A DNA stretch of 39,465 nt, from the IMG/VR virus record IMGVR_UViG_2529293078_000013; one strand, 5' to 3'. Both the position numbers and the translations under genes were made by a program. Positions 209 through 39,113 of the stretch are shown piece after piece. The notes under the pieces were generated by a model that saw only the letters and a list, made by a program, of their open reading frames with translations, made no database searches and was not told the DNA's origin. The stretch's first letter is position 1; the number at the start of each line of letters is the position of its first letter. The DNA is from a virus. Its lineage: Duplodnaviria; Heunggongvirae; Uroviricota; Caudoviricetes.

Positions 209-946
209 TCATTCACTCTCTTTCAAACCAGTTTTAACTGTTTGTGGTTTTGGGTAAGGCTGGACTTTGAATAGCTTTGTGTTGAGGCGTTTTCTGGCCC
301 TCTTGTTCAGAAACCGGATGTAACGAAACTGTCGGAACTTATGAACACTGGCTCTGTCAATATTAGCCCTCAGATGTTCACCTCGTTGTCCGCCTCGTTT
401 AATGGCATTCCTGCAAATCTCGTGATACCACTCGCCATCAAGTTCATAGAATATTGATTCATGGCTGCCTACATAATCAAAATTGCTTGCCTGATACACG
501 ACACCAAGACAGCCACAACGCTCATCTGCAAACGACTGAACCCACTGTACCTGCGGATAAAGCTGCCTGATTAGCTTGAGCGCGTAACTGATTGCCCTTG
601 ATTCGGAGTTTCTCGGCATACAGTCATGCAGCCATAGCCGGTTAAGCTCCATATATTCTCGGTTCTGCGTACCCGTTACGACGCGTGCACCACTGTTTGG
701 GTTAAGGGCGTAACCCCATTGCATTACGCCAACAAGTTCCCGTTCTGAAAATATGCCCAGATGAAGGTAGGAGTTATTTACGAAACGGTGGCTGTAATGT
801 TTATTGACGATGACCAGTCTGGCCAGCCAGCAACTTATTGTCTCAACCCGCAACTCACGGGAGCCATAACCAACGATATTGTCGTTATAGCGAATAAGTT
901 CAGGCGTGCTGATGATTCGGGATGTGACTTGCTTTCTGTTCCCCAC
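209..946 (-). CDS. mom: Mom-like DNA modification protein, called from synteny (last gene before right end, overlapped by com)
   Basis: 245-aa ORF whose start overlaps the 3' end of the com ORF by 47 nt; rightmost gene, downstream of gin. Identity rests on position, not on recognised motifs. Confidence 0.55.
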
Positions 947-2294: not shown

Positions 2295-2329
2295 CCCGCC
2301 AGCCATATCATGACCGGCGGGATTTTTTT
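2295..2329 (+). terminator. GC-stem hairpin followed by T7 run; intrinsic-terminator-like, oriented for plus-strand transcripts
   Basis: CCCGCC...GGCGGG stem (2295-2300 / 2316-2321) followed by TTTTTTT (2323-2329); abuts the stop of the 682-aa gene. Confidence 0.35.
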
Positions 2330-4376
2330 ATTCTGTTACCGCTTTTTTCACTTCCACCACAATGCTGTCAATCAGCACCGGGTAAGTTGCATTTTTTGTG
2401 ATATCCGTTACGCGGAGTTTGTCCACCGGGAAAGTTCCTACTGGTGACTGCGTCAGGGTAAACGCGGCACCATCCTGACCATCAATAACCGGAATAACCT
2501 GAAGGCTGTTATTTCCTGCAAAACGGAAGGCCAGCGTATGCCATTCATTATCAAATGCACCAAAGGTTCCCAGTTTCTGGTTATTTGTTGCCACTTTTGC
2601 ATTGTGGTACATCACATTCAGGTCTTTTGCGTCTGTCTGGATGTAGAACGATGCCAGCAGATTATTCCCTGCATCCCCTGTCAGGGTGACACCCTGCGGC
2701 AGAGAGGAAACCGGCCAGTAAAGCCCCATGACATACTGGTTTGCCACCAGGTCGCCAGGTACTTTAAAACGACAACTGATTAAACCACCATTTTTCAGCA
2801 GTTCAGCACCAGTACCGGCATCATGATCCAGATACCAAGATGATTTACCTGTTTCCTTGGTCAGTTTCATTGCCTTACCACCTGTGCCTCCTGCATCACT
2901 GATAATTTCAGCTTTACCGCCAGCCGGCTCCCAGCCCTGGGCTTTCAGATTTCCTTCTGACTCACTGACACGATAAGACAGCAGTGTTGTGGTTACTGCT
3001 TCAGTTTCTGAAGGTGACGGCACTGGTGCTTCAGTTTCAGAAGATGGAACATCGGCTTTTACTGTGGTTCGCCCCGCATGAGTCAGAACTGCCGTGGCCA
3101 GACGGTCGGAAATAATCCCACGACGTGCCCATGAACTGAAATGGCTGGCCCGGTCCGCAGATGTCCAGGTGGCGGCACTGTTACGCCACGTTGAGCCGTA
3201 ATAACCAATGGATTCAATATCCGGGTCTTCTGCCGGATTGTTGGTGGGTACATTCGCGTCATTTTCATCTGTCATTAATGGAACGAAATGAATGTTTTTA
3301 TCTGTTTTGTTTTTGTAGCCGCCATAGATTGCCTGGTATGCCGGTTCATTTTTCTGTTTCCAGAAATACGTGGTATCGCCACAAATCCACGGAACGCCAG
3401 CAGCACTGCCACCGGTACACTGTTCCGCCTGTTCAGCCAGGTCTGCGCGGAATTTTTCCACCATCGCCAGAAACAGCGCGGAATGCTCCGTCGGCTTCGC
3501 ATCAATATCAAACTCGCCCTGCATCCACACCACAGCAAGCAGGCGGTTTTTCGGGTTCTTCGCCAGTGCCGCTTTTGTCCGGCTGATTAAGTCCTTATAC
3601 AGCGGCTTATCCACACCCCAGCGGGCTGAGTCCTCTGAAGCACCCGTGCTGTCACTGTACGTGCCGTCAGCACCCGCCGTGAATGCAGAACCACCACGGC
3701 AGCAGGGAACCAGCAGAATCCCCGCATCTGCCGGAATAAACGGCAGCAGTTTTTTGGCAATGTGAAGCCCCTGACCCACGGTGCCATATTGCCCTTTAGC
3801 CACATCCGCTTTCGGGTGATTTTTTCCACTCATATCCTGCACATCATGCAGACAGTGGTCGGCCAGAATGATGTCGTTATACTGACAGGCTTTACCTCCC
3901 GGCGTGACTGTACTGCGACGGGCTAACTGCATAATACGCGGTTCGGGGCGGTCATATGTCTCCGGCAGTGGCAGACCTTCACCGTAAGCCATACCGTTTG
4001 ACTGACCAGCAAGAACCACCACGTAATACCAGGAAGGGGAGCTGGAAGCAGTTTCATTTCCTGACGGACGGGTATGTGTTTCAGCATTATCCCAGTCTGA
4101 CGGTTCAGCAGTACCGGCAACATCAGCACTTAACGGAATGACCGCACCAATACCCGCTCCGGTAATTTCCACACTCGGATCACCGGATACTGGCCTTACC
4201 CACAGGCAATCCCGTGTATTAAAACTGATGAGACAGTCAGCAAATGTCATTCCTCCTTTTGTTTCGGCCGGAGGAAAGGGAGCCTCAAGAAATGCCGCTG
4301 TACCACCGGAAACTTTAACGGTAAAGTTTCCGGGCATTGATGATAGTTGAACCCATTTGGACGTCATAATATTCAT
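2328..4376 (-). CDS. nanS-p: Prophage NanS-p-like sialate O-acetylesterase (SASA/SGNH-type) with C-terminal lectin-like domain; cargo gene
   Basis: Central region (LAGQSNGMAYGEGLPLPE, VPCCRGGSAFTAG, WMQGEFD, RRGIISDR) closely matches E. coli NanS/YjhS as I recall it; a Pro/Thr/Glu linker and a C-terminal domain follow. Confidence 0.8.
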   Translation of the reverse strand: MNIMTSKWVQLSSMPGNFTVKVSGGTAAFLEAPFPPAETKGGMTFADCLISFNTRDCLWVRPVSGDPSVEITGAGIGAVIPLSADVAGTAEPSDWDNAETHTRPSGNETASSSPSWYYVVVLAGQSNGMAYGEGLPLPETYDRPEPRIMQLARRSTVTPGGKACQYNDIILADHCLHDVQDMSGKNHPKADVAKGQYGTVGQGLHIAKKLLPFIPADAGILLVPCCRGGSAFTAGADGTYSDSTGASEDSARWGVDKPLYKDLISRTKAALAKNPKNRLLAVVWMQGEFDIDAKPTEHSALFLAMVEKFRADLAEQAEQCTGGSAAGVPWICGDTTYFWKQKNEPAYQAIYGGYKNKTDKNIHFVPLMTDENDANVPTNNPAEDPDIESIGYYGSTWRNSAATWTSADRASHFSSWARRGIISDRLATAVLTHAGRTTVKADVPSSETEAPVPSPSETEAVTTTLLSYRVSESEGNLKAQGWEPAGGKAEIISDAGGTGGKAMKLTKETGKSSWYLDHDAGTGAELLKNGGLISCRFKVPGDLVANQYVMGLYWPVSSLPQGVTLTGDAGNNLLASFYIQTDAKDLNVMYHNAKVATNNQKLGTFGAFDNEWHTLAFRFAGNNSLQVIPVIDGQDGAAFTLTQSPVGTFPVDKLRVTDITKNATYPVLIDSIVVEVKKAVTE

Positions 4377-4466: not shown

Positions 4467-5027
4467 TTATTTTTCCGAAACGCTCGCAGGATAATAACGA
4501 TAAAGGGTTGAAAGGCCGATATCAAAAATAAGTGCCACCTGTCTTCGACTGACACCCCCGGCCAGTAAACGCCCGACCTGCTCGTATTGTTCCTGCGTGA
4601 GACGACGGGGTCTGCCGCCGGTTCGTCCCCTTTCACGGGCAGCTGCAAGACCAGCCCGTGTCCGTTCGACAATTAATTCACGCTCCATTTCTGCCAGCGC
4701 ACCCATTATGTGAAAAAAGAAGCGCCCCATGGGGGTTGACGTATCAATGTTGTCAGTAAGACTACGAAAATTTATCCCCTGTTGCTGTAATTCATCTGTC
4801 AGCGCAACAAGGTGGCGCATACTGCGCCCCAGCCTGTCCAGTTTCCAGACCATCAGTGTGTCACCGGGTTTTAGTTTCTTCAGTGCCCGCTTCAGTCCCG
4901 GCCGCTGTGTCGTTTTACCACTCATTTTGTCTTCAAAAATCTGCTCACATCCTGCACATTCCAGCGCATTTCTTTGTAAACCGGTGTTCTGGTCATTTGT
5001 TGATACGCGTATATAGCCAATCAGCAT
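4467..5027 (-). CDS. gin: Serine recombinase / DNA invertase (Gin/Hin/Pin/Cin family)
   Basis: MLIGYIRVSTNDQNTGLQRNALECAGCEQIFEDK... is near-identical in pattern to Mu Gin; adjacent to the invertible segment. Confidence 0.9.
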   Translation of the reverse strand: MLIGYIRVSTNDQNTGLQRNALECAGCEQIFEDKMSGKTTQRPGLKRALKKLKPGDTLMVWKLDRLGRSMRHLVALTDELQQQGINFRSLTDNIDTSTPMGRFFFHIMGALAEMERELIVERTRAGLAAARERGRTGGRPRRLTQEQYEQVGRLLAGGVSRRQVALIFDIGLSTLYRYYPASVSEK

Positions 5028-5107: not shown

Positions 5108-5452
5108 ACTGTAAACAGGGCCGCGAATGCCCTGCCATCGAACGGAACGGCTGTTGCAGCGAATAAACTCGCCACTCCAAGAAATATTAATGGTGTCCCA
5201 TTTGACGGAACGCAGGATATAAATATTACATCGGGGATGACGCAGTCTGTGGCTGACTCACGTTATGTTCAAAGCATTCGAAGAGGTTCAAGGTCAACGA
5301 TTGGAATGCAATATAATATTTTTGAAGTTCCTGACGGATGCGTACTTACAGGGCTTGATGTCGCTGGTGATGGTAATGCAACGGTAACCGCATATTATCG
5401 ACCTGTTCAGTTTCTGATAGATGGTTCGTGGAAAACAGCTTCCAGCGCATAA
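5090..5452 (+). CDS. Sv': promoterless alternative tail-fibre C-terminal segment (no start codon; expressed only after inversion, fused to the constant part of S)
   Basis: Frame open from the TGA at 5087-5089; encodes NLGLRDTVNRAANALPSNGTAVAANKLATPRNINGVPFDGTQDINITSGMTQS..., colinear with S residues about 175-230, then diverges; ends YYRPVQFLIDGSWKTASSA versus S YYRPVQIYINNAWRTVSSV. Confidence 0.7.
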   Translation, partial: NLGLRDTVNRAANALPSNGTAVAANKLATPRNINGVPFDGTQDINITSGMTQSVADSRYVQSIRRGSRSTIGMQYNIFEVPDGCVLTGLDVAGDGNATVTAYYRPVQFLIDGSWKTASSA

Positions 5453-5531
5453 AAGTGCAGTAGTTCAAAAAACAGATTATCTGAATAAATATATGATGAT
5501 TTTGTCTTTTCAACAAAAACAAGGTGAAATA

Positions 5532-6053
5532 ATGGAGCTTATTAACGTAAAACGATATTACCCGGAACACAAACCCTATGGTGAGGATGTTCAGTATTTC
5601 CAGAGTGAGGACGGAAGGGATTTTTATGAATCTATCCCGCTTTTCACAAAGAAATACAAACTCTGTATTTCGCCTGTAACGGGTATTATCTGCTCTGTTG
5701 CTGAAGATGTCTCTGCTTTATATCCGGCAGGTTTTACTGTTGTTGAAGTGGACGAACTGCCGGAAGGTGTGAATATTGACGGTAACTGGCAGTGTTCTGA
5801 TGGCCTGATATCAAAGGTGCCGGTAAACTGGAAGACGGTTGCTGAAAAGCGTCGCTCATCGCTGCTCCAGGAAGCCAACGAAACCGTGGATGACTGGAAA
5901 ACAGAATTAAAACTGGACATGATTAGCGATGAAAATAAATTACAGCTGACGCGCTGGATGGCGTATATCCGACAGCTTAAAGAAATGCACTTTAATGATA
6001 TTGCCAGTGAGGGGCATTACCAGGCGATTCCCTGGCCGGAAAAACCGGAATAA
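5532..6053 (+). CDS. Tail fibre assembly protein (Tfa/U'-like), partner of Sv'
   Basis: MELINVKRYYPEHKPYGEDVQYF... is a typical Tfa N-terminus; AAGGTGA RBS before ATG at 5532; lies inside the invertible segment. Confidence 0.8.
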   Translation: MELINVKRYYPEHKPYGEDVQYFQSEDGRDFYESIPLFTKKYKLCISPVTGIICSVAEDVSALYPAGFTVVEVDELPEGVNIDGNWQCSDGLISKVPVNWKTVAEKRRSSLLQEANETVDDWKTELKLDMISDENKLQLTRWMAYIRQLKEMHFNDIASEGHYQAIPWPEKPE

Positions 6054-15176: not shown

Positions 15177-16679
15177 TCACAAAATGAAACGGATCTGTGC
15201 TGCCAGGAAGCGGAACTGGTTAACCAGATCCGGCGTGCATAACACGTCAAGACGGTTTCGATCTGACGCATTACGCTCCACAAGCAGATTCTTTTTAAAG
15301 GTGTCCAGATTTTCGACCAGCCCGAGTTCCACCCACTCTTCACCCAGCGAAATTAACTGAAGCTTCATGATCTCCGGCGTCACGATATTCTGACCGGCAC
15401 GAACGGGCGTCCCGTCATCAGCCAGTTTATGGCGCGGAAAACGTTGTGTGATAAAAGTACGCAGGGAATAACGCAGCCAGGAGAGGGTGTAGATGGTTTC
15501 CACATCCAGATAGCTGGGATCACTTTCGCCGTACACGTTCTGGCGATACATGGTCACCTGACGTTCGATCTGAACCACATCACCGGCAGCCACACTGACC
15601 GTGGCAATCCCTCCCCACAGCAGACTGTTACGCTCTTCACGCGTCAGACGATCGGCCGGAGCCGGGGCCATGCGTGACGGAAGCGCCAGCGTCTGAAGCG
15701 GACGCGCAGGATCTGCTCCCAGAGAGGGTGCACAGGTGGCACAGACCGCCGCTGCCCAGAGGTAATCCGGTTCAGGGGCTTTGGGAATGGATGTGCAGGT
15801 CGCCAGAAAATCATTGCGTTTTGCCCCGAATGCCTGCACCTCACCAAACGTGCCGGTATGTGCCAGCCACAGCACGCCGTCAGACATTTTGGCCGGTCCC
15901 CAGCGTTTCAGAAGCTCATCACTGATGATTTTCAGGTTTGCATCATCCTTATAGGGCATGACGACATAGTTGTACTGGCGATCGCCCATACCCGCCACGC
16001 TTCGGGTGATATCCGGGTTAGCCGCTTTTTGTTTCGGATAGGCTATAGCGACCTGTATTCCTTCCGGGGTTGCTTCCCCGTCGTGATAGTTCAGGCGCAC
16101 ATCATGAACGGAGCATTCACCGGTAAAGCGGGCGGTGATCCCCAGAGACCCTTTCAGACCTGCGCCATTATCACCACTTCCTGCACCAGAGGAGGCCGTG
16201 AAGGGCGCGTCAGGATCGGCATTGATCAGCGCGGCCAGCTCGTCGGTCAGTTCTTTGCCTTTCTTACCTTTTGGTGCCGGGAGTGTATAACGCCGCCCCC
16301 CCACGCAGGCATAAACAATCCCGTCACGGGTGACCGTTCCGGTCAGATTCATGGCCGCAGCCGTTGCCTGTCCGGTGCCGTTCCCCTGAGCAATGGCATA
16401 CAGTTCAGCATCAGGATTGATGGCGATAAATTCCGCCACCATCAGGGCAATCATGGAGCCGCGCCCCCAGAGTTCTGTTGCCTGAGACGCACGGGTGATC
16501 CTGACCGGAACATCCAGAACACCGGCACCGTCCACGGCATTCTCTTTCATTCTCGCCTGACCAAACAGCAGCACACACTGACGCTGTGCCGGAGTGCCGG
16601 TGACAGCCATGGAGTTATTAAACTCAACCTCAATCAGCGGTATACGGCGGTCATTACCGATCCCGTCAAAATTAATCAT
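15177..16679 (-). CDS. Contractile tail sheath protein
   Basis: 500 aa; sheath-tube-chaperone-tape measure order. Confidence 0.8.
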   Translation of the reverse strand: MINFDGIGNDRRIPLIEVEFNNSMAVTGTPAQRQCVLLFGQARMKENAVDGAGVLDVPVRITRASQATELWGRGSMIALMVAEFIAINPDAELYAIAQGNGTGQATAAAMNLTGTVTRDGIVYACVGGRRYTLPAPKGKKGKELTDELAALINADPDAPFTASSGAGSGDNGAGLKGSLGITARFTGECSVHDVRLNYHDGEATPEGIQVAIAYPKQKAANPDITRSVAGMGDRQYNYVVMPYKDDANLKIISDELLKRWGPAKMSDGVLWLAHTGTFGEVQAFGAKRNDFLATCTSIPKAPEPDYLWAAAVCATCAPSLGADPARPLQTLALPSRMAPAPADRLTREERNSLLWGGIATVSVAAGDVVQIERQVTMYRQNVYGESDPSYLDVETIYTLSWLRYSLRTFITQRFPRHKLADDGTPVRAGQNIVTPEIMKLQLISLGEEWVELGLVENLDTFKKNLLVERNASDRNRLDVLCTPDLVNQFRFLAAQIRFIL

Positions 16680-16921: not shown

Positions 16922-17482
16922 TTACAGTTCCTCCGGCGGTTCGACCGCCGTTGTCGTGTTCCCCGGCAAATCAATATGTGCCTCAAACGGCGGCGTACCG
17001 GGCGGCTCCACAAAGGTTTCGTAATGACGCAGGAAGTCGTCCAGCGAGCTGGTATCGGTCAGCGGTGCGATCATTTCCTCGCAGGAGAAATAAAGCGCAT
17101 ACATCACCGCACCACTGTCCGCCTGGGTTTCGGTGTAACCGTTGACCGCCTTTTCAAAGTAAAGCGGTGAGGTTTTTTCTGTTCTGAAGCCGTTAAGCAC
17201 GGCAATCAGCCGGGCCACAATCTGATACAGTCCGGGACGGCTGGCCTCACGCCCGTTGAGCATGTCGCCGATGACGTAGAACACCCAGTGACTGACCAGG
17301 CGACCACGGGTACGGCCTTCACCGGCACCCAGCCAGGCAACGTAGATCGCCGGGGCGTTAATCAGCATGGTGCGCAGTACGCTGTCGCTCCAGTCGCCGG
17401 GATGCGTGTCAACAGACACCAGTTCATTCCCGAAATACTCACGGATACGGGCGATGTATGCCTGTTCGGTTTCCGTAATCAT
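16922..17482 (-). CDS. Head-tail joining/completion protein (Mu gp37-position)
   Basis: 186-aa ORF in conserved late-gene order. Confidence 0.55.
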   Translation of the reverse strand: MITETEQAYIARIREYFGNELVSVDTHPGDWSDSVLRTMLINAPAIYVAWLGAGEGRTRGRLVSHWVFYVIGDMLNGREASRPGLYQIVARLIAVLNGFRTEKTSPLYFEKAVNGYTETQADSGAVMYALYFSCEEMIAPLTDTSSLDDFLRHYETFVEPPGTPPFEAHIDLPGNTTTAVEPPEEL

Positions 17483-17898
17483 ATGAAGCCCTTCTGGTTG
17501 CGCCCGAATACCGCTGCATCAGACTGAACCTGTGGTAAATCCCCGGATTCAGGGGCCGCACCGTTCGTATCCACACCGACCGGCACATTGCCGTTCATGA
17601 CATCTTTCAGCCAGGCCAGCGCTTCACGGTAACGGTCACGCGCCTGATCGGAGGCTCGCTGATCGCACAGGTAATAAAAGGCAATCGCGCAACAGTGCTG
17701 AACAAGAACGGCCGGAATAACCTCCAGCGGCAACGTGTAACGGGCGGACAGATAGCTGTCGATAAGGGCTGACGCATCTGTCAGCGCCCGGTTCAGCTTG
17801 CGCGTGTCCGGCTCATCCGAACGGGGCACAGCCAGTAACGGCCTGAGCAAATCCTCGCGGTAACGCGCCCGCATATCGGTTTCAGTGGCGTAATTCAT
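17479..17898 (-). CDS. Head-tail connector/adaptor-like protein (Mu gp36-position)
   Basis: 139-aa ORF in conserved late-gene order. Confidence 0.55.
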   Translation of the reverse strand: MNYATETDMRARYREDLLRPLLAVPRSDEPDTRKLNRALTDASALIDSYLSARYTLPLEVIPAVLVQHCCAIAFYYLCDQRASDQARDRYREALAWLKDVMNGNVPVGVDTNGAAPESGDLPQVQSDAAVFGRNQKGFI

Positions 17899-18299
17899 GC
17901 ACGGGCCTGTTCCGCTTTGTTACCGGTCTTTTTCCGGGGAGCATCCTGTCCGGCTTCGGCTTCGGCTTCGGCTTCGGCTTCGGCTTCGGCTTCGGCTTCG
18001 GCTTCGGCTTCGGCTTCGGCTAAATCTGTACCGGCCACTGCATGAACCACACCCGCCACGCTCCCCGCATCATCAGCAGACGTCTGTAGTATTCGCACAG
18101 TGAGGCATGGCTCCTCCTCCAGTCGGGCAAGCTGCTCCGGGGTGACCTCAACCTGCTGACGTCCACGCGTGAACAGGAACCCCGCACGACGAAACGCCGA
18201 ACGACTGCAACGCACTTCTGCCAGCACCGTGACAGAATTGTCACCACTGACCTGAAGACCTGAATCATCTGTTGCTGCCACAGTGTGATGTTCATTCAT
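17895..18299 (-). CDS. Hypothetical head-region protein containing an (Ala-Glu)12 repeat
   Basis: 134-aa ORF between the major head and connector genes; its C-terminal part is encoded by a perfect hexanucleotide repeat. Confidence 0.55.
   Translation of the reverse strand: MNEHHTVAATDDSGLQVSGDNSVTVLAEVRCSRSAFRRAGFLFTRGRQQVEVTPEQLARLEEEPCLTVRILQTSADDAGSVAGVVHAVAGTDLAEAEAEAEAEAEAEAEAEAEAEAGQDAPRKKTGNKAEQARA
17949..18020. repeat. Perfect tandem hexanucleotide repeat (GCTTCG)x12 on the plus strand, in frame within a CDS
   Basis: ggcttcggcttcgg... read directly; encodes AEAEAE... on the minus strand. Confidence 0.95.
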
Positions 18300-18342: not shown

Positions 18343-19290
18343 TTACAGATAATCCGCGACAACCAGCTCCAGCTTACCCTTCATCTCGTTAGAGACGGTT
18401 GCGTTTCCGTCTGCGAACAGTTCACGCTCCAGCAGCTGCACCGCCTGTTTTTCCAGCGAGGTGGGGACAACAATATGGGTGGGTTTAATGCCGAGTTTGC
18501 GGCCACCGTCAGCGGTAAATTCGCGCATGGCTGACCAGCCGTGCCACAGTGCATCCAGCGTCAGCGGTGACTGCATCATGTAGGCCATCTGCCAGAAGCC
18601 GTAGCCCACATTGCGACGGGCGGATGCACCAAACACAAATTCGTTATCGGTGAATGCGCGACCTTCATCGACTTTGGTCTGGGCAACCAGTTCAGCCTTA
18701 CGGCGATCCTGATAAATCAGCGGTTTTACCGCGCGGGAGCAGTCAAGCAGATACCAGGCCGGACCGCTGTAATCAGCCTGTGCGCCGACAGAGCCGGTTT
18801 TTGCCACAAACATATTGCTGACCATCTGCGCATCCCCGGAGCCATCCACTTTGGGGTAAACCGGATGTTCGGTATCAAAGAAGTTCTGACCGTCATAGCA
18901 GGCCGCACTGATCCCGTCACGCAGGGCAGCAAAGACCAGCTCATCCGGTTGTACCGCCGCAGCGCGCCCCATCTCCTGGAACAACGGGGAATAAATACCG
19001 AGGTTGTCGTCTTCGAAGTCATCGCGGCTAATGGCGACAGTGCCTTCAAAAGTTTTGTTCACGATGGCATAGCCATAGGCTTTCATCTTCTCGATGACGC
19101 GGGAGCCGATCCACTCACGGAACTGCGGGAACTGCCCCAGCCAGCCGTAGGTGTTGGATTTCGATGTGGAGGGCACGGTCATCGCAATTTTTTTATACTG
19201 CGACGGGGCCATGGACATCCCGGCCTGAAAATCAGAACGGTAGCCCGTCATCAGGGCTGTGATCATCGCCGGTGTAATCGGGGTAGGCAT
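18343..19290 (-). CDS. Major head (capsid) protein (Mu T-like)
   Basis: 315 aa, directly downstream of the protease/scaffold gene. Confidence 0.8.
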   Translation of the reverse strand: MPTPITPAMITALMTGYRSDFQAGMSMAPSQYKKIAMTVPSTSKSNTYGWLGQFPQFREWIGSRVIEKMKAYGYAIVNKTFEGTVAISRDDFEDDNLGIYSPLFQEMGRAAAVQPDELVFAALRDGISAACYDGQNFFDTEHPVYPKVDGSGDAQMVSNMFVAKTGSVGAQADYSGPAWYLLDCSRAVKPLIYQDRRKAELVAQTKVDEGRAFTDNEFVFGASARRNVGYGFWQMAYMMQSPLTLDALWHGWSAMREFTADGGRKLGIKPTHIVVPTSLEKQAVQLLERELFADGNATVSNEMKGKLELVVADYL

Positions 19291-20414
19291 TATTGCATTT
19301 CCTCTTTCATTTTCAGGAACTCGGCTTCGGTTTTACCCAGCAGTTTGGCGGCCGCGATATCTTCAGCCGACAGCGCAGCGGTGGCAGTCTTTTTATCCGG
19401 CACGGTCACGGTGTCGGTCTGAAGAGAGGTCAGGGCCGCAACCGGCTGGCGGGCGTCAAGCTGTGCAGAAAGTGCCGCAACGCCAATCTGCCCGCCCAGT
19501 TGTTCCAGATAGCCGCGTTCGCTTTTGAAGATGCGCCCTTCGGATTCAGCCTTGTCCAGCACCTGCTCCAGCGTGGTGCTGCCGTGCTGCGCCGACAGCG
19601 CAACGTATTCGGTACGCAGGGCGTTATACGTTTCAACGGGCACGTATTTCGTCAGATCAATAATGCCGCCAGCCGGTGTGCCTTTTGCGGTTTCCAGCTC
19701 TGCCGACAGACTGGCGACCTGTGTTTTCAGGTTGTCGTGTGCATCCGCACGGGTTTTGATCCCGGTGAGGGCAGACAGCGCCGCCGTGCCCAGCTCCGGC
19801 GTAAATTCGTCACCGTCAGCCACGGTCAGACCGAGCGCCGTCAGCAACTGGCGTAATTGCTCATTCATGGAGGTATCCTTTAAAGGAGGGTTTAAGGCGT
19901 TATAAAGGTCATCCGCCGACAGCGCGGCGACAGGATTCATGCCGGTCAGACCGGGGTCACCGGTAATAGCCAGCATCCGAAGTTCGACAGGTTCGCCGGT
20001 GTTCTCGTCATAGCCAATCACCGGTGAAAACCAGGGGAATTCGTTATTACGCAGATGTTCAAGGGCCGGAGGGTTCCACTTCGGGCGCACCTCGAAGCCA
20101 CGCTCTTCACTGAAGCGAAAATTCTCCGGTGAGGCCATCACAAAACCGGCAGCCGGTGCCTGATGCCCCTTAATCAGGGTCTGGTGGTTGTAGTCAATTT
20201 TCACCGGCTGATTGAGCGCCACAACCCGGGATACCATGCGCTCAACGGTCGCACGGTTAATCAGCCAGCCCTCGGCCGGTTTTTCCGGGCGACCGTCACG
20301 GGCCTTTACCCGACCGGCTGGCATGATCTGACACCAGTCACCGTCCCCGTCTGCGGACAGGCTGATGGCATTCAGAATGGCATAAGCAAGTTTGGGCGTG
20401 TTTTTCGTCTTCAT
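19290..20414 (-). CDS. Head protease/scaffold protein (Mu I-like)
   Basis: 374 aa with Ala-rich helical C-terminus; position before the capsid gene. Confidence 0.75.
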   Translation of the reverse strand: MKTKNTPKLAYAILNAISLSADGDGDWCQIMPAGRVKARDGRPEKPAEGWLINRATVERMVSRVVALNQPVKIDYNHQTLIKGHQAPAAGFVMASPENFRFSEERGFEVRPKWNPPALEHLRNNEFPWFSPVIGYDENTGEPVELRMLAITGDPGLTGMNPVAALSADDLYNALNPPLKDTSMNEQLRQLLTALGLTVADGDEFTPELGTAALSALTGIKTRADAHDNLKTQVASLSAELETAKGTPAGGIIDLTKYVPVETYNALRTEYVALSAQHGSTTLEQVLDKAESEGRIFKSERGYLEQLGGQIGVAALSAQLDARQPVAALTSLQTDTVTVPDKKTATAALSAEDIAAAKLLGKTEAEFLKMKEEMQ

Positions 20415-21185: not shown

Positions 21186-22517
21186 TTAATCAATATCTCC
21201 TTCCAGTACCTCAAGCATTCCACCCCGGATATCCGATTTCAGCTTATCCATATTGATAACCCGGTAAGCATTCACAATCACATCCAGTTTATCCGGCTGA
21301 CGCTTCAGGCTGTACGGCGCATTAACGGCAATCTGCACACTGCTATCCTTACTTTCCACGATATACATCAGATTGTTGTGGCGTTTGTCCCACAGCACCG
21401 CTTTTGGCTTTGCCAGCATTGCCGGTAATCGACCGAAATCCTCCGGCGTCAGGGCGATACCGTCATTCTGATGTTTCATGCTGTCCGCATGGAGCACATT
21501 TTTACCGCTCATCGCCAGCAGGCGGGCCGGTGGCGTTCCCGTCCGGCTTTCCACCGCCTGCGCAATGCTTTCGGTCATAAAGCCCAGCGTGCGGATATCG
21601 TTACCGCCTCGCCGGGTTTTCATGATGTTTTTTGCCCAGATGCGGAACGCCAGCTGCCGCTCCGGGCTGTTGTTCATCTCCTGCACTACCATTTCCCGCA
21701 GCGCCGGGCTTTTCACCTCGATCAGTTTACGGATCAACGCCTGGTCTGTGCCGAACGCCGCCGAGCCGGGGTTATATGACCAGCCCACATCCGGTGTCAT
21801 GGTTCTGGTGCCATCTGAATATGTGGTCACCGGCATTTCTCTGACTTCTCCGGTCTGCTTATCCACGCCAGCCTCAACATTGCGGGTGGAAAGATGATCC
21901 TGACCGGATGAAACGGATAACCCCATTGCATCCAGACGGGTCTGAGACAATGGCCGGACACGGCAGCGGCAGTTCCAGCCATTGGGTGGGTAGTGTGTAT
22001 TCCAGAACGGATCGTCATAGCGGAATACCTGCCCGTTAAGGGCGGAATGCGCCGGGCGGGTGCGGCTGTCCATCACCGCCACATACTGCCAGAACGGATG
22101 CGTGTCCGTGTTGTTCATCATCTGCGTGTAACGCCCGGCATTGTAAGCCACGCGGGTGTTCACGTTGTAAATCAGCGCCAGACGGCGGGGACTGCCCAGT
22201 TGCACTTCTTCTGCGTTACCGGCGCTGTCCACCACAATCTGCTTTCCCCACCATCCCAGCTTTTGCAGGCGGGGTGTCAGTGTGCGGATAAATGCTTTCT
22301 GTGAAATCCCCTCATCAACAGCACGCTGCACTTCCGCCTGTAGTGTGGTCAGTACGTCCAGGCGTGCCACTTTTGCCGCCGTGAATGAACGGGCATGAAC
22401 ATCCGCGTCTGTTTCGAACCAGTTCCAGCTGATATGCGCCCCTTTGGCGCGGAAGTATGCCACCGCCTCTTTTGAGGGAAGCGTGGCGGCATAACCTAAA
22501 TCAATCCCCTGTGCCAT
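21186..22517 (-). CDS. Head morphogenesis protein (Mu F-like)
   Basis: 443 aa immediately downstream of the portal gene. Confidence 0.75.
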   Translation of the reverse strand: MAQGIDLGYAATLPSKEAVAYFRAKGAHISWNWFETDADVHARSFTAAKVARLDVLTTLQAEVQRAVDEGISQKAFIRTLTPRLQKLGWWGKQIVVDSAGNAEEVQLGSPRRLALIYNVNTRVAYNAGRYTQMMNNTDTHPFWQYVAVMDSRTRPAHSALNGQVFRYDDPFWNTHYPPNGWNCRCRVRPLSQTRLDAMGLSVSSGQDHLSTRNVEAGVDKQTGEVREMPVTTYSDGTRTMTPDVGWSYNPGSAAFGTDQALIRKLIEVKSPALREMVVQEMNNSPERQLAFRIWAKNIMKTRRGGNDIRTLGFMTESIAQAVESRTGTPPARLLAMSGKNVLHADSMKHQNDGIALTPEDFGRLPAMLAKPKAVLWDKRHNNLMYIVESKDSSVQIAVNAPYSLKRQPDKLDVIVNAYRVINMDKLKSDIRGGMLEVLEGDID

Positions 22518-24099
22518 CCAGCATCCCCTTCATTTCCGCAGCAAACATGGCATCACTGAGCAGCGTCATCAGGCGGGAATCATCCATTTCACGGTAAAGG
22601 GCAGGCAGGTCTGCCAGTGCCTCCGCCAGCCCCCGCGTTCTGATGGCTTCAATGACCGGCTCCAGTACCGGGTCGATGGCCTCCTGTAACCGGCGGGCAG
22701 GCACCGCATCCCCCATGTCGTCCAGTTCATCTCGGGGGCTGCTCTTCGCTTCCGGCAGTCTGGCAGCCAGCGCTGTCTGCTCTGTCTTCTCCTGTTTTTC
22801 CGGTGGCATCTCTTTGTCTGTCTGAGCAGGTTCATTGCCACTCTGACGGACACGGAAGATGGCTTCACCGGGGGCAGGCTGTGGAATACCGGTCTGCTCC
22901 CGCACCCAGGGATCAGGAATATCCATCCCCGTACTGAGCTGCATCACCGCACTGGTGATTTTGGTGATATCCCCCGGCTCTTTTGTCTGGAAACAGATAC
23001 GCGGCAGGCGACGGATATCAATGGCGTGGGCGGTGTTCAGGGCATACAGCGGATACACCAGATCGCGGTTCAGCGTGGCGGCCAGCTGACGTAAATCAGA
23101 ATCCCTGATTTCCCGGCGCACCTCGTTATGCACTTCACCCAGCGAACGTGCGCCCTTGTCTCCGGCTTCCGTGGTCAGCGTGCCGCCGAGGATAGCTTTG
23201 GAGATGGAACGCTCCCCCCACGAAATCATGGTTTCAAACGGATCGGCCTGACCGTTCGCTGCCGCCTGAAACTCCAGCGACATCCCGGCCGGGATGATCC
23301 CGCCTGTACGTCGCCCGATATCCATCACCGCCCGCATCAGGGCGCTTTTCTGCTCCGGTGTTGCCCCGGACGGGTATTTACCGACCTTCATCGGCAGGCC
23401 GTACACCTCCAGAAATTCAGCCAGATCGCGCACGGAATAGTTTTTGAAAATGAACGGCCAGATAAGCGTTCTGACAAGCCCCGTCGCACCACCGTAGCCA
23501 GTGCGTGAACGCGACTGATGCACTATCCAGCCAAAGGGCTGAAACGCCACCCCGGCATGGCTGCCGTCACGCAGCCGCAGTTCGCTCAAATCATCCGGGT
23601 TAAGGCAGAAATGCCCGCTGTCACGCCAGCGGATGGCGCGGATGATGTGCATTTTACCGAGCATCCCGTGCTCAATCTCCATGCAGGAATAGCCTTTCAG
23701 GATGGCATCGGTGGCATCAAACAGCATGGCATCAAACCAGTCGGCGGAATGCAGGTATTCGTCGAGCATTTCCGCGTCCTTTTTCTCATTCGCGCTGGCG
23801 TTCGGGGGCGGCTCAATACTCCAGGGCACCCCCTGAATGGCAAGACGTCGCTTGCCCAGCTCTGCAAAAAGATGGGTATCCTTTTCTTCAATGTCAGCGG
23901 CCAGATCGGACTGGGCAATCAGATCGCCACGTTCAGCCCCGCGAAGGCACTGTGCCGCCCGGTTCGGGGTGATACCCGAGGCCGGATGTTCAATATAACG
24001 GCTGGCAATCTGCGGAATATCCAGCACGGCACTCTGCATCTCCGGGTCAAAGGAGAAAGGTTTTCCGTCAAGATCAATTATGCGTCCCACTACCAGCAC
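22501..24099 (-). CDS. Portal protein (Mu gp29-like)
   Basis: 532 aa downstream of the large terminase gene. Confidence 0.8.
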   Translation of the reverse strand: MLVVGRIIDLDGKPFSFDPEMQSAVLDIPQIASRYIEHPASGITPNRAAQCLRGAERGDLIAQSDLAADIEEKDTHLFAELGKRRLAIQGVPWSIEPPPNASANEKKDAEMLDEYLHSADWFDAMLFDATDAILKGYSCMEIEHGMLGKMHIIRAIRWRDSGHFCLNPDDLSELRLRDGSHAGVAFQPFGWIVHQSRSRTGYGGATGLVRTLIWPFIFKNYSVRDLAEFLEVYGLPMKVGKYPSGATPEQKSALMRAVMDIGRRTGGIIPAGMSLEFQAAANGQADPFETMISWGERSISKAILGGTLTTEAGDKGARSLGEVHNEVRREIRDSDLRQLAATLNRDLVYPLYALNTAHAIDIRRLPRICFQTKEPGDITKITSAVMQLSTGMDIPDPWVREQTGIPQPAPGEAIFRVRQSGNEPAQTDKEMPPEKQEKTEQTALAARLPEAKSSPRDELDDMGDAVPARRLQEAIDPVLEPVIEAIRTRGLAEALADLPALYREMDDSRLMTLLSDAMFAAEMKGMLDGTGD

Positions 24100-34792: not shown

Positions 34793-35020
34793 TTAGCTGA
34801 CTTGTTTCGCACCAACAGAACGGCATATTCCGCTGTAAACGTCTGTCGCACCTTCGCGATCAAGTCCGGCAGATATCACCATTCGTGTGCGGTCATTAAA
34901 TTCAAAAAGTAAATCGCCACATTCTTTATTTTCGGCCAGTGAAATCACCTTCACGTTATCGAAATTAACCAGGTAAAAGCGTCCGTAAATATCAGGAATA
35001 TTAAATACCGCCATAATCAC
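34793..35020 (-). CDS. Hypothetical small protein at the Mu kil position (first gene after B)
   Basis: 75 aa, overlaps the B stop; Mu kil is about this size and here, but no sequence recognition. Confidence 0.45.
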   Translation of the reverse strand: MIMAVFNIPDIYGRFYLVNFDNVKVISLAENKECGDLLFEFNDRTRMVISAGLDREGATDVYSGICRSVGAKQVS

Positions 35021-35949
35021 ACCTGTGAGAGTAATTCAGGGTTGGTATAAACCTCTTTAAAGGCCGCATTAATATGTTTTTCTGTCAGCGCCGCGCCTTC
35101 ACCGCTGGCGGTGAGCCACGCCTGGTTAAGCGTATGTGTCAGAACGCGTAACGCTCCCGGCTTTTCAGCGATAGCCTGCATGACGGCCAGCTCGGCCTCA
35201 CCACTGATCCCCCACGCCCTGGCAATGGCCAGCACATCCGCCTTTTTGGCCTTGCGAAGTTGTTTTGTACGGGCAAGACGGCTGAACAGGCGCGATAAAT
35301 CATCAAAGGCGCGGCGTCCACCTTTAAACAATCCGCGCGGGTTACCAATAAGCACCATCCCGATCCCCGTGGCGTCCTGAATTGCCCGGAGTTGCTCCAG
35401 ACCGTCAATACCCAGATGATCCGCCTCATCCACAATCACCAGTCCACGCGTTCCCATCAGGCGACGGCGGATGGCGCGGGATAATGCCCCTTTGTTCGCG
35501 CGGGTGTAATCAATCCCCAGCGCATCGGCCAGCTCCAGCAGACACTCCGTGACGCTGGAGTGCGCGGGTGACAGGGTGATCATCCAGGTGTTTGGTTGCT
35601 CCTGGCAGTAATTACGGGCAGTGGCCGTTTTACCCACACCCGGTACGCCCACAATAACGTTAATACAGCCCATCAGACGAACCGCCTGAAACAGTGCGCG
35701 CAGCTCCTGGACTGTCTGCGTTTCCACAAACTGCGGCGGTTCCGGCAGTGCGCTTTGTTTATTCCAGTTTTCATACCAGGAACGCAGGGAAGCAGCCACA
35801 GCGGCGTTATCGCCTTTATATTTCCCCTTGCGGAAAGCCGATAATGTGCCGTCGGAAATTCCCGCCTCTCTGGCGATGGCATACTGCGTCAGTACGCCGC
35901 CATCAATAAGTTCATCAATGGTCTTGATTACATCGTTAATATCAGTCAT
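35017..35949 (-). CDS. B: Transposition ATPase / target DNA activator B (MuB-like AAA+)
   Basis: Walker A GVPGVGKT, Walker B LVIVDEADHL, and FVETQTV / KKADV...AW / KPGALR motifs match MuB as I recall it. Confidence 0.9.
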   Translation of the reverse strand: MTDINDVIKTIDELIDGGVLTQYAIAREAGISDGTLSAFRKGKYKGDNAAVAASLRSWYENWNKQSALPEPPQFVETQTVQELRALFQAVRLMGCINVIVGVPGVGKTATARNYCQEQPNTWMITLSPAHSSVTECLLELADALGIDYTRANKGALSRAIRRRLMGTRGLVIVDEADHLGIDGLEQLRAIQDATGIGMVLIGNPRGLFKGGRRAFDDLSRLFSRLARTKQLRKAKKADVLAIARAWGISGEAELAVMQAIAEKPGALRVLTHTLNQAWLTASGEGAALTEKHINAAFKEVYTNPELLSQV

Positions 35950-36020: not shown

Positions 36021-38111
36021 TCAGGCCAGCGGGTCATTTTCTTTTAATTTCGCTTCCAGCAACTGCAATCCCCGCTGGAAATTACGCTCGTATTCTTCAT
36101 CAGGTTCATCGTCAGCGACCGGTTGCTGAACGGTCACCGTATTACCCACAGGGCGGTATATGTTTTCCAGCCAGGGCTCCTGCGGCTTGTGCTCCAGCAC
36201 GTTGACAACCTCATCCTCGGCATCACGGATTTTTTCCTCTGCGCGTTTACGCATGCCTTTAAGGCGTTGCTGCTGTTTGTAGTATTCCGCGCTGACCGGG
36301 AAGGCTTCGCGTTTATTGCCGTCCCATACCGCCTCGCAAATCACGCTGCCATCCAGGCGACGTACGGTAATTCGTTCGGCATCATGAATGTCATAGCTGA
36401 TAAGCACCTTACGGCCATGCTCGTCACGCAGCTCGGGCGCGTAGTAAATATTATTCAGCCAGCGTATTTCACAGCGTCTTACAGGGCGTTCCACCATCGG
36501 CCGGAACATATCCCGCAGCTCAACATCGGACAGCCATTCAATTTCCGTGTCCTCTTCCGCCAGGCGTTTTTTTCTGAACTCCGCCGGGCTGTAATGCTTG
36601 CCGTTCGGCTTCACCGGTAATTCATCGTGCGGCCGGTTGTTGTACCACTCAACACCGTCACGAATGGCATCAATCAGTTCAGACCAGGACGGTAAATCAC
36701 GCATCGCTGACTGCTGCCGGGCGTTCAGCCGTTTGCCCTGTTGCAGGGCAGTAAATGCCGAGCGTAAATCGCGGTTGGTTTTGCGTAACGTCTCGCGATC
36801 TGCACCTTTCCCGAAATAGGTGCGGTATTTACGGGCTATGCGCATCGGTAATGTGCGGTTAAGCCGTTCGATAATGCCTCGTCCCTGCGGATTACCGGCA
36901 ATCCCGGTCGGGTGATTAATCCCCAGTCGCGGCAGTATCCCCACAACCTCCTTATCCAGGATGTCGGCGGTTTCCCCGGAGCCGTTATCCGAGTAATACA
37001 GAAACGGTTTGCCGTGATGGCGAATGCCGTGCTGTATGGCACCGGCTACGGCGAAAACATTTTCAGCCAGGTCAAGGCTCCAGCCCACCACAAAGCGCGT
37101 GCCACCGTCGATAACAAAGGTCACTTCCGGTGCAAATGGCCGACCGTGAACCGGGTGTGCGCATTTCAGCTTCATGCCGTGACCGTCACCAATCCAGACA
37201 TAATTCACCGGCATTCTGGACCAGTCGCGGCGCGTGAATCCCTCAAGCTGGCGGTATTCACTGCCGGTCACCCGGCCTTTTTGTTTCACCACTTCCGGCA
37301 GTTTCTTCATTGCGCGGCGAATGGTGTCATAAGACGGCATGATATCGAGCATATAAGGCTCATCAGCGTGCCGGTGCTGCCATTCAGCGACAAAATCCTC
37401 GTAAGCCTCGGTCATTGGTCGGCCGTTTGACTGGCGATACTGCGCCAGAAATTCGGGCAGCCAGTTAATATCTTCGGCTTTTATTTCCTGGCGCTTACCC
37501 GGTGCCAGTAAAAGCAGGCGTTCAGCGGCGTTCTGCGCCTTGTTAAAGGCCGCAATCCAGCGTTTCAGCGTGATTTCACTTAACGCGCGGCTGTTTCCCT
37601 TTTTGGCGTTCGCCGTCTCAACCATTGCCACAATGCGCTCGTCCAGCTGCGAACGTGCCAGGTTGTCAACGATAAACCGGATAGCCTTCGCACAGCTGAA
37701 ACCAGGTTGTTGCGCGACTTTCAGAACTTCGCTGACGATCGCGATTCGTGCATCAGCCACCTGGCGCTGGTTTTCAGTCAGGGCATTAAGGCGTTCGACC
37801 ATCAGTTGTGGTGATCCGCGATATGCCTCCACCGCATCAACCACGGCAGGCGAGCGTCTGGCCTTTGTCACCACTGGAGCCGGTGATTCATCGACTTTTT
37901 GAGTCATCAGTTGCAGGGCGTAGCGTTCACGTAATGCCTGCTGCGTCACTTCAGGTAAACAGTCGATGCTGTATTCAGTTGCTTTAGAGCCTGAGCGACG
38001 ACGGGAACAACAGCTTTTCCCTTGTACGTAACGTTGTAATGCCTGGCGAATACCTTTTGTTGTAGCAGGCATTCCGGGCGCGCCAATCAGTTCTTTTGCA
38101 ATGACATACAT
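36021..38111 (-). CDS. A: DDE transposase A (MuA-like)
   Basis: 696 aa; N-terminal DNA-binding region and central core (WIGDGHGMKL...GWSLD...) align in pattern with MuA; sits between ner and B. Confidence 0.9.
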   Translation of the reverse strand: MYVIAKELIGAPGMPATTKGIRQALQRYVQGKSCCSRRRSGSKATEYSIDCLPEVTQQALRERYALQLMTQKVDESPAPVVTKARRSPAVVDAVEAYRGSPQLMVERLNALTENQRQVADARIAIVSEVLKVAQQPGFSCAKAIRFIVDNLARSQLDERIVAMVETANAKKGNSRALSEITLKRWIAAFNKAQNAAERLLLLAPGKRQEIKAEDINWLPEFLAQYRQSNGRPMTEAYEDFVAEWQHRHADEPYMLDIMPSYDTIRRAMKKLPEVVKQKGRVTGSEYRQLEGFTRRDWSRMPVNYVWIGDGHGMKLKCAHPVHGRPFAPEVTFVIDGGTRFVVGWSLDLAENVFAVAGAIQHGIRHHGKPFLYYSDNGSGETADILDKEVVGILPRLGINHPTGIAGNPQGRGIIERLNRTLPMRIARKYRTYFGKGADRETLRKTNRDLRSAFTALQQGKRLNARQQSAMRDLPSWSELIDAIRDGVEWYNNRPHDELPVKPNGKHYSPAEFRKKRLAEEDTEIEWLSDVELRDMFRPMVERPVRRCEIRWLNNIYYAPELRDEHGRKVLISYDIHDAERITVRRLDGSVICEAVWDGNKREAFPVSAEYYKQQQRLKGMRKRAEEKIRDAEDEVVNVLEHKPQEPWLENIYRPVGNTVTVQQPVADDEPDEEYERNFQRGLQLLEAKLKENDPLA

Positions 38112-38361: not shown

Positions 38362-38528
38362 ACTTCCTCTATTCTAAAAAGTTACCCGCGCGGATATTCG
38401 TGCGGATATCTGTACGGGTAAATAATAGAACAAACAAAAGAACCAAATCAAGGTATTTTGTTCTTTTTATTCTTTGCGGTGTTTTTGTTATTAATATCAA
38501 TAAGATAAATACAAAGGAACCTGAGAGC
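38362..38528. promoter_or_regulatory. Divergent early/repressor promoter-operator region with repeats
   Basis: Inverted repeat TTACCCG...CGGGTAA flanking direct repeats GCGGATAT x2; second inverted repeat AAAAGAAC...GTTCTTTT with 16-bp spacer; AT-rich. Confidence 0.5.
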
Positions 38529-39113
38529 ATGAACATGAAAAACAGTTCTTTTCTCGACGAAGGAAAAGAACCAGTGATCGAACGGATTTTTCGTCTTGCA
38601 GAGCGTTACAAATCGAGAAGTGAGGCGGCTAGAGCATGGGGAATAAACGTTCAGACATTGCAGAACTACTACAAAAGGAGAAACAATCAGCCGCCACCAC
38701 AACCAAGAAAGCACCATCTCCAGAACATTGCAGAAAGAGAACATGTATCTATGGAGTGGCTAGTCAATGGTTATGGTGATGAGCCAAGCATGAAAAAAGA
38801 ACCAATTGAACAAACAAAAAGAACAAAAAAACAAAGAATTGATGATAGTGATTCCATCATCATGAGGGCGTGGGACTCGCTAACTTCATCTGAACAAGAG
38901 ATTTTGTCCAACTTATTGATCAGAAAAGGGGCCGAACTACTAACCGTTTTGCTTGATACAGATATTCAAAAACTGCACTCATTGAGCGGAGTCAAAAGAG
39001 CACTAGCATTGAGTCTACAAGAGTTACCCGATGATACTGTAAGAGAGATTTATGAAGAATGTGAAGCTAAGGTTAATCATTTAAATGTAACCCAGAAAAA
39101 GGCTGGTGCGTAA
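38529..39113 (+). CDS. c: Mu c-type lysogeny repressor (the six-frame ORF starts at 38400; start at Met 38529 preferred, AGGAA RBS)
   Basis: Divergent from ner next to the left end; N-terminal HTH; C-terminal region resembles the Mu repressor C-terminal domain. Confidence 0.7.
   Translation: MNMKNSSFLDEGKEPVIERIFRLAERYKSRSEAARAWGINVQTLQNYYKRRNNQPPPQPRKHHLQNIAEREHVSMEWLVNGYGDEPSMKKEPIEQTKRTKKQRIDDSDSIIMRAWDSLTSSEQEILSNLLIRKGAELLTVLLDTDIQKLHSLSGVKRALALSLQELPDDTVREIYEECEAKVNHLNVTQKKAGA

Follow-up and report, generated by a model that had tools for sequence, protein, structure and literature searches.

A polymorphic in-frame hexanucleotide array in the gp35-like gene of a Mu-like prophage is the EHEC typing locus EHC-5

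Short tandem arrays of high purity are not expected in the structural genes of phages. One such array, built from a 6-nt unit, is found near the end of a gene in the head region of a tailed phage (Caudoviricetes; IMG/VR record IMGVR_UViG_2529293078_000013). This raises the questions of how the array is maintained, whether its length varies between related phages, and whether that length matters to the protein that carries it. We addressed these questions using the complete available stretch of 39,465 nt, hereafter referred to as the window, together with complete Escherichia coli genomes, protein family searches and the literature.

The window holds a Mu-type gene set extending from Mom to MuA, and therefore represents an entire Mu-like prophage. 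The genes that are relevant for the following are listed by position:

209..946, minus strand, Mom
4467..5027, minus strand, Gin-like serine invertase
15177..16679, minus strand, tail sheath
16922..17482, minus strand, gp37
17479..17898, minus strand, Mu gp36-type head-tail adaptor, the downstream neighbour (Pfam Phage_Mu_Gp36, E 3.5e-35; phrog_195 'head-tail adaptor')
17895..18299, minus strand, gene for a 134-aa protein related to Mu gp35 and FluMu gp35 (HI1506) (open reading frame supported by Pfam, PHROG and PDB matches)
18343..19290, minus strand, Mu-type major head subunit gpT, the upstream neighbour (Pfam Mu-like_gpT, E 6.6e-119)
19290..20414, minus strand, Mu I protease/scaffold
21186..22517, minus strand, MuF
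22501..24099, minus strand, portal
35017..35949, minus strand, MuB
36021..38111, minus strand, MuA

Near the Mom end of the prophage, a gene at 2328..4376 (minus strand) encodes a 682-aa protein with a SASA (sialate O-acetylesterase-like) carbohydrate esterase domain and DUF6645. This gene adjoins the Gin-like invertase gene (4467..5027, minus strand) and a tail-fibre assembly gene (5421..6053, plus strand), and together they resemble a host-range region in which the fibre or spike of the Mu-like phage would have enzymatic activity. At the other end, a 237-aa open reading frame without a Pfam match (38400..39113, plus strand) may encode the repressor, judged by its position. At 38794..38835 lies an A-rich imperfect repeat with two copies of period 21, in which periods 4 and 9 are also detected.

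The gene carrying the array is located between the genes for gpT and gp36, and its stop codon overlaps the gp36 start codon in the sequence ATGA (17895..17898). The sole Pfam match of the encoded protein is FluMu_N (PF17891), covering residues 36-72 with 35.1 bits against a cutoff of 25.8. It also matches phrog_3622 (E 2e-78), the NMR structure of FluMu gp35/HI1506 (PDB 2OUT; phmmer E 1.6e-4) and Mu_35 (tblastn E 4e-4), and the protein is named 'HI1506-related protein' in RefSeq. Judged by its N-domain and gene slot, the window protein is a member of the FluMu gp35 / HI1506 / Mu gp35 family. The slot between gpT and gp36 is the same in phage Mu and in distant metagenomic Mu-like phages, and the order gpT, FluMu_N protein, gp36, gp37 is kept in distant Mu-like phages of both the myovirus and the siphovirus type. 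As this order is kept with contractile as well as non-contractile tails, the gp35-like gene belongs to the head/neck module, independent of tail type. The gp35-like protein would be an accessory factor of this module.

Careful inspection of the array itself gave the following two features:

17955..18020, minus strand, (GCCGAA)11 array encoding (Ala-Glu)11, residues 94-115; the perfect periodicity reaches 17951..18021
17949..17954, minus strand, variant end unit GCCGGA (Ala-Gly), which closes the array in 19 of the 20 alleles examined

At its longest, the perfect period-6 run spans 71 nt (17951..18021), or 11.8 units. Tandem Repeats Finder reports it with 11.8 copies, a 100% match and a score of 142, and as the one strong tandem repeat in the window. 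Runs of this kind are expected by chance at about 3e-35 per 39.5 kb; the array is real and cannot be a product of chance. An earlier note, made from the sequence alone, had described a perfect (GCTTCG)12 at 17949-18020 encoding (Ala-Glu)12. The repeat is indeed present, but GCTTCG occurs in 11 consecutive copies (17953..18018), not 12. The interval given in the note corresponds exactly to the coding register on the minus strand, in which 11 GCC-GAA units (18020..17955) are followed by GCC-GGA (17954..17949). The product is thus not (Ala-Glu)12 but (Ala-Glu)11-Ala-Gly, the last unit being a variant, and it occupies residues 94-117 of the 134-aa open reading frame. The description of the array as in-frame, close to the C-terminus and part of a head-region gene agrees with this position and with the surrounding block of head and neck genes.

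The array turned out to be a locus that is already in use for strain typing. [quoted passage not shown]

17912..17934, plus strand, EHC-5 reverse primer site, CCGCTTTGTTACCGGTCTTTTTC (exact match; primer sequence from S5 Table, PMC10062581)
18070..18092, minus strand, EHC-5 forward primer site, ATACTACAGACGTCTGCTGATGA (exact match; primer sequence from S5 Table, PMC10062581)

The primers converge around the array with 0 mismatches each and delimit an amplicon of 181 bp in the window. No match in the window was found for the primers of the other 17 MLVA loci, including EHC-6, when up to 2 mismatches were allowed. EHC-5 belongs to the Japanese EHEC MLVA scheme of Izumiya et al. 2010 (Microbiol Immunol 54:569), as cited in PMC10062581, and the primers of the scheme are given in S5 Table of Hirai et al. 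2023 (PMC10062581). In O157 the alleles 0 (absent), 2, 3, 5, 6, 7, 10, 11, 12, 13 and 14 are reported, and allele '0' is found in most O157 isolates, with 31-100% across the O157 clades of S3 Table (PMC10062581). EHC-5 and the window share the 6-bp unit, a highly polymorphic copy number and a null state in strains that lack the element. The hexamer array is EHC-5, the same locus, and nothing differs at the DNA level. Its polymorphism is therefore already known, the locus having been in routine typing use since 2010. The same tables show that EHC-5 and EHC-6 are absent from an equal fraction (0.762) of O157 clade 2 isolates (PMC10062581, S3 Table); a different element, inherited together with the prophage in this clade, may carry EHC-6.

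EHC-5 is handled as an anonymous marker only in PMC10062581. The present analysis may make a modest addition, in that it places the marker in the gp35-like gene of a Mu-like prophage capable of transposition, identifies the product as (Ala-Glu)n and locates this stretch within the protein architecture. Full-text literature searches with the hexamer in its circular permutations returned unrelated papers only, and those combining O157 VNTR with Mu-like, or Sp18 with O157 tandem repeat, as well as those on HI1506, gave nothing useful.

The loci O157-3, -9, -17, -19, -25 and -37 are in-frame 6-bp VNTRs of the MLVA schemes for Shiga-toxin-producing E. coli (STEC) O157. Like EHC-5, they are arrays of short units that change fast enough to distinguish outbreak strains and are sized as fragments. 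Unlike these loci, EHC-5 is carried by a Mu-like prophage that can transpose, which is why most strains lack it and others may have several copies. A megablast search of the repeat region against 5426 complete E. coli genomes, with one best place counted per genome record, detected it in 228, mostly Shiga-toxin-producing strains of O157, O26, O111, O103 and O145. Some E. coli genomes carry up to 4 copies. These copy numbers, together with the many chromosomal positions occupied, suggest that the Mu-like phage still transposes in STEC. The same Mu-like phage is also annotated inside Stx1a- and Stx2c-converting phages (LC727895.1, 26891..27265; LC727881.1, 53841..54197).

Between matches with 100% identical flanks, the length differences were exact multiples of 6 nt. 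The alleles of 20 loci, those of 19 fetched complete E. coli genomes and that of the window, were read directly. The fetched loci contain 1, 2, 5, 6, 7, 8, 9, 10, 12, 13, 14, 15, 16, 17, 18 or 20 GCCGAA units and the window contains 11; arrays of 5, 6, 11, 16, 18 or 20 units occur between flanks that are 100% identical to those of the window. The reading frame is kept in all 20 alleles. The arrays are pure in all alleles read except one (L015), in which a GTC (Val) variant unit is present twice, and a single allele (L020) lacks the GCCGGA end unit and ends in ACCGTA (Thr-Val). Unit numbers inferred from the lengths of 52 evenly spaced hits gave 16 alleles and a Simpson's D of about 0.94. The allele spectrum in these 52 sampled genomes is nearly even from 1 to 18 units, without a preferred length, and lineages with a single unit persist. 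The earlier note had considered the unit number likely to be polymorphic and had proposed a comparison across related prophages; this comparison gave 1-20 units among 20 genomes, with flanks up to 100% identical, rather than one number shared by all.

Protein databases contain further derived arrays with AG, EV, AK, ES or ET interruptions. In one database sequence, P0071, the array is read in another frame as (Lys-Pro)n followed by the normal tail; as this is a single sequence, it could be a sequencing error. The C-terminal tails of P0050 and P0053 are frameshifted. The end of the basic tail (17898..17925) varies as well, reading ...GNKAEQARA in the window and ...GNKAKQAKKARA in most relatives, a 9-nt difference. 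This 9-nt variant is the reason why genome-to-genome length differences sometimes depart from multiples of 6.

The mechanism can be narrowed down using closely related isolates. Two near-clonal cattle isolates, 121 and 136, whose chromosomes are almost equal in length and share the insertion coordinate, carry 13 and 14 units, respectively; of six isolates from this cattle series, three have each allele. Slipped-strand mispairing is recognised by the combination seen here, namely steps of one unit between clonal isolates, arrays that are pure, and point variants that have been duplicated. The recent slippage proposed in the earlier note is thus borne out by the single-unit step between isolates 121 and 136 at the same site and by the purity of the arrays. 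Instability driven by hairpins was considered and ruled out. With minimum free energies of -3.8 and -2.4 kcal/mol, the two array strands are less stably folded than shuffled controls (z +3.8 and +3.2), and all 200 shuffles fold at least as well. Since neither strand has hairpin potential, expansion driven by secondary structure need not be invoked. The copy number changes through slipped-strand mispairing during DNA replication, usually by whole 6-nt units, so that the gene stays in frame and remains translationally coupled to the adaptor gene downstream. A phase-variable ON/OFF contingency switch was also rejected, given a 6-nt unit inside the open reading frame and a frame that is kept in all 20 alleles.

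At the protein level, two segments frame the array:

18075..18230, minus strand, folded N-domain with the conserved FluMu_N, predicted beta-beta-alpha-beta, residues ~24-75 (AlphaFold2, alignment motifs and Foldseek)
17898..17948, minus strand, short basic C-terminal tail QDAPRKKTGNKAEQARA, residues 118-134 (alignments; pLDDT <50)

An AlphaFold2 model was built with a 30-sequence alignment. It predicts strands and a helix within residues 25-73, with a pLDDT of 84-94 over residues 21-70. The alignment places the conserved motifs FRRAG and EP(M/C)LxV in this N-domain, and the top PDB match of the domain in Foldseek is 2OUT. Residues 76-134, including the array, are predicted without secondary structure at a pLDDT of 44-52, a value that on low-complexity sequence is not proof of disorder. 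The flexible acidic linker near the C-terminus, as it was called in the earlier note, is consistent with this drop from 84-94 in the N-domain. The (Ala-Glu)n would thus be intrinsically disordered, with the conserved N-domain on one side of it and the short basic tail on the other.

An exhaustive profile search for the family returned 4314 representative clusters, mostly of proteins of 64-145 aa. The tails of 124 members have a median length of 58 aa, with 47% of the residues being A, E, K or P and 11% hydrophobic, and half of them have at least 3 K/R among the last 10 residues. Judged from this composition, an acidic-then-basic low-complexity tail is a common design of the family. A perfect peptide repeat of at least 4 copies was found in 1 of the 124 tails. 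Perfect dipeptide arrays are thus rare in the family, so that the pure microsatellite would be a lineage-specific accident of the E. coli lineage and not a family trait. Among the larger family members, P0121-P0125, P0129-P0131 and P0134 (185-259 aa) contain two FluMu_N domains in tandem; we know of no description of this architecture.

The tails suggest that the length of the spacer is only loosely constrained. In the family, this segment would be constrained in composition, being rich in Ala, Glu, Lys and Pro, acidic first and often with a basic end, rather than in sequence or length. Any number of units between 1 and at least 20 would then be tolerated by selection, leaving the array free to drift. 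From the tolerance seen across genomes we infer that spacer length is probably neutral. Taken together, we consider it very likely that the array is a hypervariable in-frame VNTR identical to EHC-5, that it is driven by slippage, and that it forms a length-tolerant disordered spacer in an accessory protein of the head/neck module of a Mu-like prophage in STEC.

The window protein, Mu gp35 and HI1506 have in common a homologous N-domain, the slot between gpT and gp36, and a flexible segment after the N-domain. They differ in what follows. Mu gp35, the Edwardsiella homologue P0084 and the protein P0092 carry, after a short linker, a mutually alignable C-terminal region of about 50 aa (LNTRIRA...NPEHF...PKV...LG...). 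In the window protein the place of this region is taken by (Ala-Glu)n and a basic tail of about 18 aa, whereas Mu gp35, P0084, P0092 and HI1506 have no microsatellite. HI1506 reportedly has a folded C-domain according to its NMR paper. Most of the distant family members also lack the Mu-type C-terminal region, so this region defines a subfamily and not the whole family. MAFFT aligns AGQDAP...TG of the window tail with AGLDKANPEHFTAG, a similarity too short to tell whether the window tail could have arisen by truncation of the Mu-type C-domain.

One alternative to a length-tolerant spacer is that the protein is a true virion component, either an accessory of the neck or connector or a decoration of the capsid. 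The (Ala-Glu)n would then lie exposed on the particle as a spacer or surface feature, possibly in helical form. In the curated Mu record AF083977, Mu_35 carries the annotation 'head-to-tail connector complex protein' and a reference to HI1506, and the gene lies within the head/neck block. Furthermore, the authors of a cryo-EM study of the Mu virion list gp35 among three probably structural proteins and state that it may be an additional connector-related protein (PMC11915804). However, gp35 was not located in the virion map, and the capsid has no cement proteins (PMC11915804). The label 'structural gene' is therefore unproven, and the same observations fit a factor that is not a stable, ordered component of the virion. 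AlphaFold2, moreover, predicts no helix for the repeat. We regard a role as a virion component as unlikely.

A second alternative is that the array is an adaptive tuning knob, where the repeat number alters the reach or net charge of a tether and thereby packaging efficiency, particle yield or neck assembly. It would then be an in-frame contingency locus providing heritable and reversible variation. The very high allelic diversity (Simpson's D given above) can be read in this way, as can the position of the array between two presumably functional modules and the addition of one negative charge per unit beside a basic tail. The nearly even spectrum from 1 to 18 units argues against a tuned length, as do the persisting single-unit lineages, the great differences in length and sequence between the tails of other family members, and the (Lys-Pro)n reading of P0071, albeit a single sequence. 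Adaptive tuning is in our view decidedly unlikely.

A role at the level of nucleic acid, be it structured DNA or RNA, a regulatory site or an antisense open reading frame, instead of the peptide, is very improbable. Plus-strand open reading frames do run across the array, at 17897..18103 with (Arg-Leu)n and at 17917..18045 with (Ser-Ala)n, and C-TTCG-G motifs occur on this strand. These antisense frames are, however, created by the repeat alone and lack support from homology, the poor folding of both strands speaks against a structured element, and the minus-strand gene is backed by Pfam, PHROG, PDB and conserved synteny. That the length differences are assembly or sequencing artefacts is next to negligible: numerous 'partial' database proteins stop within the array, marking the places where short-read assemblies break, but the alleles were read from closed genomes, in which identical flanks enclose arrays whose lengths differ in exact 6-nt multiples, the arrays of at most 126 nt lie well inside single reads, and comparable variation is seen independently by capillary fragment sizing in MLVA (PMC10062581).

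The function of the protein as a whole can be approached by comparison with phage lambda. Lambda gpFI binds the major capsid protein, stimulates terminase-dependent packaging and is absent from mature virions. Its gene, FI, is flanked by the major capsid gene E and the adaptor gene FII, and the gp35-like gene of the window is flanked by those for gpT and gp36, so that both occupy the slot between major capsid and adaptor. Lambda gpFI consists of two modules and an acidic linker, with the order of the modules reversed compared to the gp35-like protein. The weak fold matches include the C-domain of lambda gpFI (2LSM), YqbF (2HJQ) and HI1506 (2OUT). HI1506 and YqbF are said to have been proposed as structural relatives of gpFI by Popovic et al. 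in 2012. For the gp35-like protein, no similarity to Packaging_FI (PF14000) was detected in sequence or profile comparison, the hhalign probability being 0.08%, and FluMu_N was the only family detected in the Pfam scan of the window protein. gpFI has been described as a bridge between the capsid and the terminase-DNA complex (PMC13595911). By analogy, our best guess is that the gp35-like protein might act as a gpFI-like tether, with one end on the procapsid and the other on the DNA/terminase side. We tentatively consider this the most likely function, while still finding it somewhat doubtful, and offer it as a working model and not as membership in the gpFI family.

A short identity was observed between the two proteins. 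The hexapeptide AGQDTP occurs in the lambda gpFI linker at residues 48-53 (L025, 1503..1898) and in the gp35-like variant P0066 at residues 91-96, after the repeat, and its counterpart in the window protein is AGQDAP at residues 116-121. BLASTP between gpFI and the gp35-like variant gave an E of 0.038, which is marginal for a single comparison. The identity may be due to chance, or AGQDTP may be a short motif common to two proteins of the same gene slot.

Combining the working model with the variation of the array leads to a further speculation, namely that (Ala-Glu)n is a tether adjustable in length and charge in the Mu-type counterpart of gpFI, and that slippage would generate subpopulations differing in packaging efficiency or particle yield. 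We consider this a long shot. If true, the array would be an in-frame 'evolvability' locus in a morphogenesis gene and not a neutral marker.

The location of the array on a mobile element bears on the use of EHC-5 in typing. The locus is sized by Japanese public-health laboratories to separate outbreak strains of EHEC O157, O26 and O111. A mobile prophage that may be absent, present in up to four copies, or located inside Stx phages can explain the null alleles of EHC-5, and several prophage copies per genome could in principle yield multiple EHC-5 peaks. For the biology of the Mu-like phages, the array is a clean natural experiment: between N-domain and basic tail, gp35-like proteins accommodate a spacer with 2 to 40 extra residues, in keeping with the constraint on composition alone that is seen across the family. 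While Mu gp35 is still missing from the structure of the Mu virion, these natural length variants offer a ready handle on gp35 function.
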